Shown one piece after another: positions 3,602 to 16,084 of a stretch of DNA of 64,000 nucleotides; within the stretch, counting starts at the first letter, position 1; each line of letters opens with the position of its first letter. Made by a program: the position numbers and the translations under genes. Origin of the DNA: an uncultured Chloroflexia bacterium (GTDB taxonomy: Bacteria > Chloroflexota > Anaerolineae > CG2-30-64-16); assembly GCA_963810095.1 (NCBI GenBank), contig CAWEMM010000012.1, positions 690,496-754,495 of the forward strand. The letters are read 5' to 3'. Below the pieces are notes generated by a model. The model was not told the DNA's origin. It saw only the letters and a program-made list of their open reading frames with translations, and made no database searches.

Positions 3602-4869
3602 CTAGCGTAACACCGGGATTGTGGCGTTGGCAAATGGCATGACGCCAATGCGCGCGCCGGATGGCAGGCGGGCCAGCGCCTCGTCCACGGCCTGCTGGAG
3701 CGAAGGGGCGGGGTTCAGCAGCAGGCGCTCGGCCAGGCTGCGGTCCATGTCTGACACGAACGTAAGGCGGACGCGGGCCGCGTCGCGTGCGATCTGCCAC
3801 GCCTTGTGCGGGCCGATCCGGTAACCCTCCGCCGCATAGCGGTCGAGCACCTGCTCGTGCGTCGTGAAGCCGCCGTCGAGCATCCAGCGCTCGTAGGCTG
3901 CGCTGCCCGTGCCTTCCCCGCAGGCCGCGGCCAGGATCACTGCGCCGCTCAGAGCGGGAACCAGCCGGGTCACCAGGGTGGCGTGCGCGAGGGCCTTTTG
4001 CGCCTGGTACAGGTTGATGTCCTTCGGATGGCCGCCGGGCGACACGATGACCAGGTCGAACGGGCGGCTGACTTCCACCGCGTAGATGGCGCGCAGCAGG
4101 GGGATGCCCGCCTGCATCACGTCGACCGGGCGCCCGGCCAGGACGTGCGCGATCTGCTTGTGGTCATTCAGGATCGCGTTGAGCGCGTAGTCCACCCCGA
4201 TCAGCCGCCCGATCTCTTCGACATCCTGCCGGCAGGGGTTGTCCGCGTAGGAGTTGATCTCGGCGCCGGCCGCGGTCATCATGGCATGGTTCGTGTTGAT
4301 GGTGGCCTTCGCCGTCAGGCCCACCGCCGCGCTCTTGACCCCGCCCGAGAAGCCCATGAACTGGTGCGGCTCGATGTTCCCCACGACCACCCGCAGGTCC
4401 GCCTCCCACCAGCGCCGGTTGACGCTGACGGGCGTGCCGCGGGCCGTCTCGCCGAGGTAGATCAGCTCGCCGTCCGCATTGCAGTCGTGGCTGTACACGG
4501 GGTAGCGGGCGAGGATCTCGGCCGGCAGGATGGCCGGGAATTCCTCGGGCGGCATGGGGGCGTGGGTGCCGGTCGCCACCAGCAGCGTGATGTTCTCGGG
4601 GAGGAACCCGAGCCCTTCGAGCCGGGCGAGCAAGGGCGGCAGAAGGTAGCGGTGGGGGACGGGCCGGGTCTTGTCGTTAACCGCGACGACAGCCCTCCGC
4701 CCTCGGTTCGTGGGCAGGGGCGCGGCGTCCAGGGCCGCCTCGACTGCCGCCAACGGATCGGGCGAGGGCGCGGCCTCGCGGGGCGCGAGCAACTCCACCC
4801 GGCGTCCAGCGCGGCGGGCAGGTCGAACTCGACAAATCCTTTCCCGTAGGGAAGCTGGTAGCGGGTCAA
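3602..4869 (-). CDS. larA: LarA-family nickel-pincer 2-hydroxy-acid racemase; frameshift near 5' end
   Basis: LPYGKG, VNDKTRPVP, ATGTH, IEPHQFMGFSGGVKS, GGHPKDINLYQAQKAL. Confidence 0.85.
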
Positions 4870-4876
4870 CGGCGCC

Positions 4877-5990
4877 TCATGCAAACAGCCGGATCAGCAG
4901 CAGGCTAAACAGCGCCAGGCAGCCGCCCACGGCAAAGCCGAGCGCGAGCGGCTTGAGCCCGGTGCGCCGGATGCTCGCGGCGTTGGTGCTCAGCCCGATG
5001 GCCGAGAGGGCGAGCAGGATGCAGAGCTTCGTCACCTCGTCCAGCAGCTTCAGCACGTTGGCGGCGGCTACCAGGCTGCCCGGGTCGTTCACGTTGACCG
5101 GTGTGAAGCCGAGCGCGTTGCCGAGCGACCGGACCAGGCTCATGCCGACGAAGCCGAGCACGAACCAAGGCACGATCTTGCCGATCGACAGCTTGACCGA
5201 CGCATCCCGCTTCTGCTGCGCCCGGGCGTACACCAGCCCGATGCCGAGGATCAGCGGGGCCATGAGCGTGTTGCGCACGAGCTTGACCACCGTCGCAACG
5301 TCGCGTGCCGCGTCGCTGAACGCCGCGCCCGCGGCCACCACCTGCGACGTGTCGAGGATCGCAGTGCCGGCCCACAGCCCGAAGATCCGGTCGCTCATGC
5401 CCACCAGGTAGCCGAACGTGGGGTAGAGCAGCACGGCCAGCGTGCCGAAGAAGGTGATGGTGGCGACCGCATAACTCACATCCTCGTCCTCGGCCTCGAT
5501 GACCGGGGCCGTCGCAATGATGGCGGAGTTGCCGCAGATGGCGGTGCCGACGCCGATCAGCGCGGCCAAGCCGGGGGCGGATACGGAGGGCGCGCCCCAG
5601 CAGGTAGGCGAGCGACAGGGCAAAAGCCACGCACGCGAGCACCAGCAGCAGCGCAGACCCGCCGATGTTGATCACGTCCTGGAAGCTGAGCCGCACGCCC
5701 AGCAGGATAATGCCAAAGCGCAGGATGCGGGTCAGAGCGAACTTGATGCCCGGCTCGAAGCGGGCGGAAAACCCGATCGCGTTGCGGACGAAGAACCCGA
5801 GCAGCACCGCGATGAAGACTTCGCTCACCGCCCGAGCGATCTCGGGCGAGGGGATCAGCCCGTGCAGGTAGCGCGCGATGAGCGCCACGGCCAGCACCAG
5901 GAACAGGCCCGGCAGGGCAGGGCGCAGCTCCGCGCCGATCTTGCGGAGCTCGGCAACAAGTGGATTGACGTGCGTTGTAGGGGCGATCAT
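4877..5990 (-). CDS. YeiH/UPF0324 (SuyZ-like) putative sulfite/sulfate exporter; frameshifted
   Basis: LRFGIILLG, GTAICGNSAIIA, GLWAGTAI.DTSQVVAA, KLVRNTL, VPWFVLGF; many TM segments. Confidence 0.85.
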
Positions 5991-6081
5991 GGCAGCTTCC
6001 CGACCTTCGGGGTTTCGACCGCGAGCAACCTGACCGGGTCAGGCGCTCGGTGAAACCCCGAAGGTCTCGGATTGGAGCGGG

Positions 6082-13304: not shown

Positions 13305-14647
13305 GCAGCACGGGCAGGTCGAGCAGCCGCGCCAGCGCCAGCAGGGCGTCCAGGTGGTCGCCGTAGGTCAGGGAGATGTGGTGGTCCAGCCCTTCGGTCA
13401 TGATGGTGTCGAAGCACCTCTTGGGCCGGGCGGTCGAACCGGATGCACGCCGGACGTGCCCGTGTAGCTCATCGGCGCGTGCTGCATTTCGCCCGCCGCC
13501 ACGACCAGCCGGTACTCGCCCGTGGCCTGGCTCAGGCGGGCGAGGGTGACGCGGCCCGGCTTCAGCGGGAACTCCATCAGGAGCGGCTTCTTGCGGTTCG
13601 AGTGGACCGTCGTGCGGGGCCGCAAGTCGGGATCGGCCATCGAGAGCGGCGCGAGCCCGCAGTGCCACAGCACCGCCTCGTCCCGCTCCAGGTCCCAGCC
13701 GACCATGTCGGTCCCAAAGGCGGGCTCGCCGCTCAAACCCTGGAGAATCAGCCCCGTGACCGTGCCGTTCACGTCGGCCTCGCACGAGCACGGCGTCATC
13801 TCGTCGGTCAGCAGCGACATCGCGCCGCACGCGGCGCCGCCCAGCTCGGTGAAGAACTCGGGCCAGCAGCGCACCGCCAGGCCCCGAAAAGGCGTTTTCG
13901 TCGGCCAGCCGCCCCAGCGTGACGTACGCGCCGAGCGTGTTGCGCAGCGGCTCCTGCTCCAGCTCGTCCAGGCCGTCCACCCGCTCGCTGCAGGTTCGCC
14001 AGCACCGGGTCTACCGCGCTGACCGCCGCGCTCCGGGCGCCGTCGAACACTTCGGCCAGCCCGCGCTGCACCACCTGCACGCCCAGCCGGGCCGCCAGCG
14101 CATCGCCGTCATACGTGCACGGCTCGAAGCCGTCCGGGTTGAGCCCGAACCGCCCGATCCGGGCGCTCTTGAGGCGTGCGCCGCACCCGGCCCGCTTGTG
14201 CCAGCGTGAGCAGCTTCTGCATCGCCTGCGCGGTCTTCCGGCTCGGCGTAGACGTACTCATAGCTGAACCCGGCCCGGCGCAGCGCGTGCGCCGCCAGGT
14301 TGATGCCGCAGAACGAGTTCAGCCGCAGCCGGCCCCCGGTGCGCTCTTCGGGCAGCGCCCACAGCAGCAGTGGCGCGCCGGGCACGGTGCGGGCCAGGTC
14401 GACGACCATGGTGCTGTCGGCGAACGAGGCCTGGAACGCGAGCAGCAGGTCGACCGGCTCGGACAGCAGCTCGGCCGGCCGCCGCCCGCACGCCGTCCAG
14501 GTCCATCACGAGGTCGGCCGGACCGTGCACCACGCAGCCGGCCTCGTCGAGCCGGGCGCGCATGCGGGCCATCATTTCGGCCGCCAGGGGGACGTCGAAG
14601 GTGGGACGGGCAATCGGAATGAAGCCGATGTGCAGCGTTGGTTTCAC
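13294..14647 (-). CDS. L-fucose-isomerase-fold protein, probable sulfoquinovose isomerase (SqvD/SftI type); multiple frameshifts
   Basis: [53 protein letters not shown]-cluster context. Confidence 0.7.
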
Positions 14648-15995
14648 GGTTGGGTTCCTTGTCGGTAGAAGAATGCGTCGAGGGCGAGCGCGGCCGCACC
14701 GATGACGCCCACCTTGCGGCCAAACGCCGTGGTGGAGAGGGTCACCCGCTCGCCCAGGCCGGCGAACGAGCGCCGGCGCATGGTCTCTTCGATGCGGGGC
14801 AGCATCAGGTCGGCCCCGGCGGCGAACAGGCCGCCCAGGATGATCATGTCGGGGTTCACCAGGTTGACGAGGTTCGCCAGCGTCGTGCCCAGGTGGAAGG
14901 CCCGCTCGTCGAGCAGGGCGAGCGCGTCGCGGTCGCCCGCCGCGCCGCATCGAACACCGCATCGATGGCGCCACCGGGGCTGAGTGCGGCGTCGGCGGCA
15001 GCGCCTGGGCCAGGATCGAGCCGGGCGAGCGGCGCTGCGAGCACGGTGGCCTGCCGCACGATCTCCCCTTCGGACACCAACGTTTCGAGGCAGCCGGTGT
15101 TACCGCAGCGGCACGGCGCCCCGCCGGCAGGGATGACGGTCGTGTGCCCGATTTCGCCCGCGCCGTACTGCGTTCCCCGGTAGAACTCGCCGCCGATGAC
15201 GAAGCCCGCGCCCACGCCGACCCGGCTGTAGACGAACGCCAGCATGTTCACGTCGCGGCCCGCGCCGAACATGGACTCGGCCAGGGCCATCGCGCGCACG
15301 TTGTTGTCGACCATGACCGGGCGGCCGGTGATCTCGGTCAGGATGTCGCCGACCGGGCACGTTGCGCCAGCCGAGGCTCGGGCGCGAGCACGTTGACGCC
15401 GGTGTGCGGGTCGGTGAGGCCGGACGCACCGACGCCGATGCCGACCAGGCCGGTCGCGGCAGCCGCCCGACTCGTCGAGCGCGGCGTCGGCGATGTCTGC
15501 GGCCATGCGCAGCAGTTGCTCGGGCGACGACGCGCCGTCCTCGGGCTGGTGCAGCGATGCGGTAGGCCTGCAGCTCGCCAAACAGGTCGGTCACGCCCAC
15601 GTGGACCGTGTCGACGCCGATGTGGATGCCCACGGCGCAGCGTGCGTCGGGGATCAGGCGGACCAGGGTGGGGGGCGGCCGGCGCCCTTGCGCTCGACGT
15701 TCGAGCGCTCGACGGCCGTGCCTTCGACGTTCGAGCGCTCGAAGGGGAGCGCTCGCCTTCAGCAGGCTCCTTGCCCGCTTCCTCGACGATGCCCTGTTCC
15801 AGCAGTTGCGTGACGAGGTTGGTGATGGTCGTGGACGACAAGGCCGGTGAGGCGGGCCATGTCGACCCGGGAGATGGGGCCGCAGCGCAGCAGCGTCGAA
15901 AGGATCGCGTGCAGGTTATGTTCTTTGACGTCAGAAATCGACCGGCCCCGGGGGAGGACGGTGCTATTAAGGGCGAGGGGATGGTGGAGCTTCAT
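14644..15995 (-). CDS. ROK family transcriptional regulator; frameshifted
   Basis: HTH GPISRVDMARLTGL; DNNVRAMALAE, GEIGHTTV, CRCGNTGCLE, NPDMIILGG. Confidence 0.9.
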
Positions 15996-16020
15996 TGGTC
16001 GCGCCTGATCACCCGGGAGG

Positions 16021-16084
16021 AATTAATTAATCAAGAGTAGAAATAATATAACGTGAGTATAGGTCGTCGGCGGGCGTTTGTCAA
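16021..16084 (-). promoter_or_regulatory. Sigma70 promoter of the SQ operon with downstream AT-rich ROK-type operator candidate
   Basis: Minus strand TTGACA(16084-79)-17 bp-TATACT(16061-56), then ttatttctactcttgattaattaa. Confidence 0.7.

Follow-up and report, generated by a model that had tools for sequence, protein, structure and literature searches.

One Chloroflexota operon predicted to take sulfoquinovose to pyruvate and sulfite, with a LarA-type candidate sulfolactate racemase and a tungsten-type candidate sulfolactaldehyde oxidase

Mineralisation of the plant sulfosugar sulfoquinovose (SQ) is usually described as a job for two organisms. The stretch of DNA considered here (the window: 64,000 nt, G000:C12:690496-754495, from a 6.13 Mb genome in 16 contigs, 88.5% complete) raises the question of whether a single operon could carry the entire route, and which of its products would oxidise the sulfolactaldehyde (SLA) intermediate and invert the sulfolactate made from it. 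A first-pass annotation, made from the letters alone, had marked such an operon in a likely Chloroflexota host. The closest kin of the window proteins are indeed metagenome-assembled genomes (MAGs) of Anaerolineae, and Pfam and NCBIfam scans of the open frames found every gene type it had named, on the minus strand between 3602 and 16084; all features given by coordinates below lie on that strand. These limits are accurate, coordinate 3602 being the LarA stop and 16084 a promoter -35 hexamer, but the cluster continues past 3602 to window position 1, through a formamidase-like gene, an alpha/beta hydrolase gene and a gene for an aldehyde ferredoxin oxidoreductase (AOR), and a major facilitator superfamily (MFS) transporter gene follows the AOR gene on the same strand just outside the window (G000:C12:688485-690203). 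From 16084 to position 1 all family-matched genes are co-oriented, over an operon span of ~17 kb, in the transcription order ROK, SftI-like isomerase, substrate-binding protein, two permeases, TAL_FSA, Gfo/Idh/MocA, SAF plus GD_AH, YeiH, LarA, formamidase-like, alpha/beta hydrolase, AOR. The gene set recurs across several genera of the family. Function was assessed with the intact proteins of a same-genus genome (G007, locus L023) beside the frame-broken window pieces; the breaks themselves are taken up further on.

The route we propose would begin with an ABC system importing sulfoquinovosyl glycerol or a similar glycoside, from which a GH188 enzyme of SqgA type would free SQ. An SftI-like isomerase would convert SQ to sulfofructose, and a sulfofructose (SF) transaldolase would pass a C3 unit to glyceraldehyde-3-phosphate, leaving (S)-sulfolactaldehyde. 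The tungsten AOR would then oxidise this to (S)-sulfolactate with ferredoxin as acceptor, a LarAH5-type nickel-pincer enzyme would turn (S)- into (R)-sulfolactate, and a fused SuyAB would cleave the latter to pyruvate and sulfite. A YeiH/SuyZ protein would export the sulfur product, and the ROK protein would repress the operon. That one operon takes SQ glycosides to fructose-6-phosphate, pyruvate and sulfite in this way, through the AOR and LarA steps, seems to us likely. Homology and synteny support the predicted GH188, transaldolase, SuyAB and exporter steps and, less strongly, the isomerase; to that extent the functional reading offered on first pass (SQ glycoside import, sulfo-TAL cleavage, SuyAB desulfonation, SuyZ-type export) is upheld as a prediction. 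Its picture of a complete pathway within 3602-16084 named these steps rightly, but left LarA without a role and overlooked the missing SLA dehydrogenase. It is the LarA and AOR steps, proposed from context, that need argument. Their conjunction (the LarAH5 clade as a 3-sulfolactate racemase linking sulfoglycolysis to SuyAB, together with AOR as the maker of sulfolactate in this lineage) is put forward tentatively, at a little under even chances.

According to two papers, the sulfolactate derived from SQ is the (S) enantiomer and SuyAB takes the (R) (PMC13436972; PMC11193023). An inversion step is therefore needed. Pfam and NCBIfam scans found no SlcC/ComC pair among the operon proteins; what the operon does have, downstream of the exporter gene, is a LarA homologue of the LarAH5/Mar1 clade (3602..4870; Lar_N/LarA_C, with the N-terminal ~20 residues in another frame). 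It scores 471.3 bits against NF052595 ("malate racemase, LarAH5 family," cut-off 462), and its G007 counterpart, at L023:3917-5170, 496.9 bits; the closest solved relative is Mar2 (6d6z). The motifs NDKTRP, EPHQF...K, YQAQK, and GPHKA are present. By eye, the aligned signature has the catalytic His/His/Lys and Arg residues, along with two features typical of group 5, an HQF that follows the catalytic His and a terminal Arg; on the same by-eye alignment four of 20 signature positions differ from Mar1 (L/W/Q/I in the window vs. A/Y/L/W). The NPN cofactor biosynthesis genes larE, larB, and larC lie elsewhere in the genome (G000:C2:113532-116260), all above their cut-offs. At least four further LarA paralogues are also present, at 25-37% identity (C12:27622-28737, 85419-86588 and 585034-586177; C14:92095-92469), with many more in relatives, a sign of how widely nickel-pincer enzymes are employed in this lineage.

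When one genome per species was scanned with an alignment of ten orthologues, 80 LarA-orthologue loci at 51-73% identity came out. Most are from Chloroflexota, with four from Verrucomicrobiota, two from Acidobacteriota and one from Spirochaetaceae. All called open reading frames (ORFs) of these loci were clustered without prior labels, the 30 commonest clusters were annotated, and neighbours were counted within 10 kb. A SuyB-type protein is found in 31 loci and a second UxaA-type lyase in 20, never both in the same locus, for a lyase of either type in 51 of 80 loci and in 27 of the 37 not cut by contig ends. SF transaldolase (SF-TAL) and a GH4 glycosidase each occur in 25 loci, SftI in 16, aldehyde dehydrogenase (ALDH) in 14, YeiH in 13, AOR in 12, SqgA in nine, GH31 and malate synthase in seven each, and a second AOR type in five. 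The lyase shares the LarA strand in every case counted (31/31 for the SuyB type, 18/18 for the second type, 49/49 together), with a gap of at most 300 bp in 14 and 12 loci, respectively. The association extends beyond the phylum, six of the seven loci outside Chloroflexota having SuyB. Among 41 related genomes, 18 have a LarA orthologue (at least 60% identity); every genome with SuyAB (14) or with SF-TAL (15) is one of these, and the 23 without the orthologue have neither (SuyAB 0, SF-TAL 0). In a phylogenetic tree the 78 LarA orthologues, including that of the window, form one clade (SH-aLRT 100) that excludes two paralogues from the same genome, and the rows from other phyla are nested within it.

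3-Sulfolactate is the sulfonate analogue of malate. Malate is racemised by Mar1/LarAH5 of Desulfitobacterium hafniense, at a Km of 55 mM and a reported kcat/Km of 0.39 s-1 mM-1, and its authors allow that the native substrate may be something other than malate (Desguin et al., 2020; PMC7583248); Table S1 of the same paper gives the top rank among group 5 neighbours to COG2721, "altronate dehydratase." The string "sulfo" is absent from the accessible parts of both this paper and a 2024 follow-up (PMC11770544). In the literature searched, no paper was found on a sulfolactate racemase, nor any joining sulfolactate to lactate racemase or to nickel-pincer enzymes. From gene context, the stereochemical need and the lack of the usual enzyme in the operon, the LarAH5 clade could be a single-enzyme (S)/(R)-sulfolactate racemase, and we rate the odds of this as somewhat better than even.

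Several observations pull the other way. The curated name of the clade is malate racemase, and malate is what Mar1 racemises in vitro. Malate synthase occurs in seven of the 80 LarA loci, all with the second UxaA type. Four related genomes have a LarA orthologue but no SuyAB that could be found, two of them (G020 and G024) at 98-99% completeness, and in G024 the neighbours of LarA are AOR, hydrolase and MFS genes only. The window genome itself has two Ldh_2 (ComC-family) genes elsewhere, which could serve a two-dehydrogenase racemisation. Finally, the genomes and loci counted above are kin, and kinship inflates all of the co-occurrence counts. One alternative builds on several of these points: the window would hold a known type of "extended sulfo-TAL + SuyAB" cluster in which LarA, a racemase of malate or another hydroxyacid, merely travels along, with inversion by ComC/SlcC-like dehydrogenases and SLA oxidation by an unlinked NAD-dependent ALDH, for which four genes at 33-35% identity to the cluster-linked type would be available. 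Against it stand the shared strand of LarA and lyase in 49 of 49 loci, their spacing of 300 bp or less in 26, and the same link in Verrucomicrobiota, Acidobacteriota and Spirochaetaceae. No SlcC/ComC-type gene appears among the 30 commonest annotated neighbour families, and the high Km of Mar1 for malate, a native substrate that its own authors doubt, does not favour malate. We consider this alternative unlikely.

Two neighbours of LarA in other loci deserve mention in their own right. The second UxaA-family lyase, with split SAF and GD_AH parts and 35-37% identity to SuyB, replaces SuyB beside LarA in its 20 loci (L041, L047, L051, L052, L056, L061, L064, L066, L084, L086, L088, L089, L092, L093, L095, L096, L100, L102, L104, and L107), of which seven have SF-TAL and seven malate synthase. 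The GH4 (NAD/Mn-dependent) glycosidase adjoins LarA in 25 of the 80 loci (L041, L043-L045, L047, L052, L056, L060, L061, L070-L073, L075, L077, L082, L086, L088, L092, L095, L099, L100, L103, L104, and L107); only L072 and L099 also have GH188 SqgA, and none of the 25 has GH31. This glycosidase might represent a further, third type of sulfoquinovosidase; no paper describing a GH4 sulfoquinovosidase was found in the literature searched.

The second step in question is the oxidation of SLA. Pfam and NCBIfam scans detected no Aldedh or SLA-reductase family among the operon proteins, nor an SLA dehydrogenase within 3602-16084, and the genome has no close orthologue of the ALDH linked to LarA in other clusters, the best of its four candidates reaching 35% identity. 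At the downstream end of the operon, running off the window start, is a gene for a tungsten-type AOR (1..1772; two frame breaks), whose product scores 248.8 bits for AFOR_N, 416.1 for AFOR_C and 413.6 against the full length of Pyrococcus furiosus AOR (1aor, residues 3-625). It is beside LarA in 12 of the 80 loci, no more than 300 bp away in seven of them, and an AOR of either type (12 loci, and five for the second type) is found together with ALDH (14 loci) in only one. Gene context and the missing usual enzyme thus suggest that AOR may act as the SLA oxidase in place of an NAD-dependent dehydrogenase, a proposal to which we give about an even chance; no paper joining sulfolactaldehyde to an AOR was found in the literature searched. 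The assignment is the weakest link of the pathway because AORs are broad-range, and adjacency to one could reflect general aldehyde detoxification.

Between LarA and AOR are two genes of less certain bearing. The first encodes an acetamidase/formamidase-family protein (2680..3597; PF03069), beside LarA in five of the 80 loci; the second an alpha/beta hydrolase (1805..2585; Hydrolase_4, one frame break), beside LarA in seven, which might, speculatively, be a lipid deacylase. LarA, AOR, alpha/beta hydrolase and MFS genes also form a reduced module, with neither SuyAB nor transaldolase nearby, at L016/L036 (G024), L032, and L055. The LarA proteins of these loci form a long-branched subclade, and a genome-wide look at G024 (98% complete) turned up no orthologue of SuyAB or SF-TAL.

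Such loci favour a further possibility, that the fused SuyAB accepts (S)-sulfolactate directly and that LarA and AOR form a separate module acting on some other pair of aldehyde and 2-hydroxyacid, for example lactaldehyde/lactate or glyceraldehyde/glycerate. Glycerate and other small 2-hydroxyacids are among the known substrates of LarA homologues (PMC11770544). The window SuyB, though, shares 58-67% identity with SuyBs whose clusters bring an inversion system of their own (hpsO/hpsP), a point in favour of equal stereospecificity, and the LarA signature, set by eye beside the supplementary tables, has a terminal Arg and matches the dicarboxylate (Mar) type, not the lactate/glycerate type. We think this highly improbable and prefer to place both LarA and AOR between the transaldolase and SuyAB.

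SuyAB itself, the predicted (2R)-sulfolactate sulfo-lyase, was listed on first pass as suyA/B. Both parts are there, SAF (SuyA) and GD_AH (SuyB), but fused in one chain (6082..7591): once a spurious extra base near 7318 is discounted, the two window frames meet at KTMR|WSLEE. A single ORF of 502 aa covers both parts in nine of the 14 orthologue-holding genomes of the family (G007 and eight others, by matches spanning residues 1-502). Other relatives have split forms of 387-388 aa, the fused chain occurring in this genus and some related genera. The window SuyB is 66.8% identical to that of Cupriavidus pinatubonensis and 58.5% to that of Paracoccus versutus. These two references are 64.1% identical to each other, comparable values that place the window protein within the spread of canonical SuyBs. 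Other plasmid-borne UxaA-family proteins reach at most 39.5%, so a SuyB-like protein rather than an ordinary UxaA, as first read, fits best. The C. pinatubonensis gene is in an hpsN-hpsO-MFS-dehydrogenase-suyA-suyB cluster, and that of P. versutus is followed by a "sulfate exporter family" gene. JGI names close homologues "(2R)-sulfolactate sulfo-lyase subunit beta." The SuyA part is less conserved, at 33-41% identity to reference SuyAs.

The next gene (4880..5972; one frame break, at 5570) encodes a YeiH/SuyZ-type exporter of sulfite or sulfate (PF03601/TIGR00698), 31.6% identical to the exporter adjoining suyAB in P. versutus. The genome also has four sulfite-oxidase-family domains. Sulfite respiration by the host was entertained and dropped, as dsrA was not found in the genome at its 88.5% completeness.

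For the upper half of the pathway the evidence is uneven. The Gfo/Idh/MocA protein (7720..8936; one frame break) is a predicted GH188 NAD-dependent sulfoquinovosidase of SqgA type. Its best solved relatives are 8zn9, 8qc2, and 8qc3, with E-values of 1e-62 to 1e-66, the next family being at 1e-15; this gap of 50 orders in favour of SqgA structures led us to reject an SLA or inositol dehydrogenase. According to Kaur et al. (2023; PMC10755693), the sulfonate triad of ArSqgA is Arg166, the Leu170 backbone and Lys172, with Glu189 and His193 among the catalytic residues. By our own count of residues, HRFPFLDK at 8335-8358 corresponds to R166/L170/K172, and EKCCH at 8272-8286 to E189/H193. Identity as SqgA, with the sulfonate-binding motif kept, is a well supported prediction.

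For the transaldolase and isomerase, NCBIfam and PDB scores were used in place of SftI/SftT trees against FucI/TalC. The transaldolase (8952..9619; SftT/SqvA type, two frame breaks) has as its best solved relatives the BmSF-TAL structures 8bc2-4. The intact orthologue scores 272.6 bits against 8bc3 (residues 2-219) and 170.1 against the next, an ordinary transaldolase, and the N-terminal window piece gives E-values of 4e-34 and 2.8e-15, respectively, in agreement with the sulfosugar enzyme first suggested. The lysine motif FVIKLP and a second motif, SPFIGWKE, are present. The putative SQ isomerase (13294..14630; at least three frame breaks) has NF048012 as its sole NCBIfam match (E 1.2e-42 for the window pieces), and a PDB sequence search returned no solved relative.

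Three things count against the pathway at this level. The intact isomerase orthologue, aligned over positions 5-440 of 443, reaches 273.6 bits where the NF048012 equivalog cut-off is 700; the transaldolase is below the TalC/FSA NCBIfam cut-off, its assignment resting on nearest relatives; and a search of sequencing runs for the stretch matched no RNA run, only DNA runs, with shares of at most 0.11. The isomerase is accordingly best called SftI-like, a weaker assignment that goes by nearest relatives.

The importer genes are less specific. A sugar ABC substrate-binding protein with a TAT-like signal (11763..13188; SBP_bac_1/SBP_bac_8, one frame break near 12114) resembles generic sugar-binding proteins, and no special likeness to solved SQ-binding proteins was found. 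It is followed by a UgpA/MalF-like permease (10752..11715; two frame breaks) and a UgpE/MalG-like one (9754..10702; one frame break), both with BPD_transp_1 domains. The sister genome G007 differs between sqgA and the transaldolase gene, where it has a gene for a MazF/PemK-type toxin and a 309-aa ORF with no annotation (L023:9205-10487); the window has no such insert.

First in the transcription order is the ROK-family gene (14644..15997; HTH and ROK domains, Pfam ROK matched on pieces, in at least three frames), with its ATG at 15995. The intact G007 orthologue aligns with Mlc positions 10-394 of 405. With the Mlc/NagC-type N-terminal part present, the protein is a repressor candidate and not a kinase, a role ruled out by alignment of the intact orthologue to Mlc/NagC from position 10; by homology it is the probable repressor of the operon. 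Some 60 nt upstream of the ATG is a sigma-70-like site (16056..16084; TTGACA-17-TATACT), a match to 11 of 12 consensus positions and known by consensus match only. The "one strong promoter" of the first-pass annotation holds to this extent; the number of such sites in 17 kb is two, vs. 1.3 ± 1.1 in shuffles, a count not above chance, and this one stands out solely by its quality and position. Downstream of it, an AT-rich palindrome, TTGATTAATTAATTC, may be an operator. A 128-nt intergenic spacer between sqgA and suyAB (7592..7719) is richer in AT than its flanks, has repeated GATC-containing words (GATCGAACGGATCGGACTGATC ... GATCAGGTCGATCAGTTTGATCAG), and may be an internal regulatory site.

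All of this presumes working genes. At first sight the window suggests otherwise: relative to intact orthologues there are ~17 frame switches in positions 1-16000, with most genes split over two or more frames, and a decaying pseudogene array, with no working pathway in the host, would be one way to explain them. The same genome's rpoB is split as well, however, and every operon gene is an intact single ORF in G007, with intact orthologues in other genomes too. In the correct frames GC3 is high throughout, and the pieces are free of in-frame stops and deletions. Logan contigs from four metagenome runs (90-99% alike to the window, and so from relatives, not necessarily the same strain) have, among the matches listed, one base fewer at 5570, 7318, 9051, 9299/9302, 10454/10456, 11448, 12114, and 13444, and two fewer at 8671. 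At least nine of the 12 frame-switch sites predicted within 3600-13500 are matched by missing bases in these independent contigs. Because rpoB is split too, the G007 genes are intact and the independent contigs are short of the extra bases, the breaks are insertions of assembly or sequencing and not decay, and we find the pseudogene explanation barely credible. Frequent single-base insertions are a property of this assembly, at ~1 break per kb in the operon, and the same-genus genome G001 shows LarA split likewise; gene calls and completeness figures for both should be read with caution.

If the proposed route is correct, many Anaerolineae would carry all of it in one operon, as would some Verrucomicrobiota, Acidobacteriota and Spirochaetaceae. 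What the window chiefly offers is two enzyme assignments that can be tested. The LarA reading bears on how an (R)-specific SuyAB obtains its substrate from (S)-sulfolactate where SlcC/ComC is missing, and on the native substrate of the LarAH5/Mar1 group. Should both assignments prove true, nickel-pincer and tungsten enzymes would enter the sulfur cycle, a curated family name would be corrected, the native substrate of D. hafniense Mar1 would be named too, and ferredoxin would serve the lower half of the pathway without any need for pyridine nucleotide.

Several known systems resemble the window operon in part. The first-pass annotation did not recognise the gene combination as described, but sulfo-TAL with SuyAB has already been predicted in print, in this phylum: under "Extended sulfoglycolytic pathways," the review of Wei, Tong, and Zhang (2022; PMC9594981) notes, with reference to Liu et al. 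(2020), that SuyAB is present in sulfo-TAL clusters of both Thermotogae and Chloroflexi, suggesting that SQ carbon is used completely. Like the window, these have SQ isomerase and SF transaldolase genes clustered with SuyAB, with sulfite release predicted; they too are a bioinformatic prediction, and the review text on them, in contrast to the present proposal, names no racemase, nickel enzyme or AOR (the terms "racemase," "nickel," "DUF2088," and "PF09861" do not occur in it). Chloroflexi were also listed among phyla with sft clusters (Frommeyer et al., 2020; PMC7491151), and a Chloroflexi cluster with SqgA was shown by Kaur et al. (2023; PMC10755693); later papers call such coexistence unusual or rare (PMC12421959; PMC13436972). 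What is new relative to the literature searched is the fused SuyAB, together with the roles that context suggests for AOR and the LarAH5-type enzyme.

The sulfo-TAL system of Bacillus aryabhattai SOS1 and B. megaterium (SftI/SftT/SftD; SqvA-D) has an isomerase of the SftI family, as predicted here, and the window transaldolase is ~60% identical to BmSF-TAL over its full length. The window differs in lacking an SftD-type NAD-dependent SLA dehydrogenase and an SftR reductase, in having GH188 instead of GH31 and an ABC importer, and in that sulfolactate would be degraded onward, not excreted. A further comparison is Paracoccus wurundjeri (PMC12421959), in which one organism joins sulfosugar cleavage by a sulfofucose-ED pathway, inversion by SlcC/ComC, and SuyAB, and in which the SLA dehydrogenase is likewise unidentified. 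There the inversion goes via sulfopyruvate with two NAD(P) dehydrogenases, whereas a single LarA-type enzyme is proposed for the window; the upper pathway is ED rather than TAL, and the phylum is another.

Mar1 of D. hafniense is like the window LarA in NCBIfam family, in the HQF and terminal Arg hallmarks, and in having the UxaA family (COG2721) as main neighbour; it differs at the four of 20 signature positions given above and in its published substrate, malate. For desulfonation, the nearest models are the SuyAB-SuyZ system of Paracoccus pantotrophus and the SuyAB of C. pinatubonensis; SuyB parts are 58-67% identical and SuyA parts 33-41%, and a YeiH-family exporter adjoins, as in P. versutus. 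In these canonical systems, where the (R)-enantiomer is cleaved in an Fe(II)-dependent reaction, SuyA (about 90 aa) and SuyB (about 390 aa) are separate proteins, and in the lineage of the window they are one chain of 502 aa.

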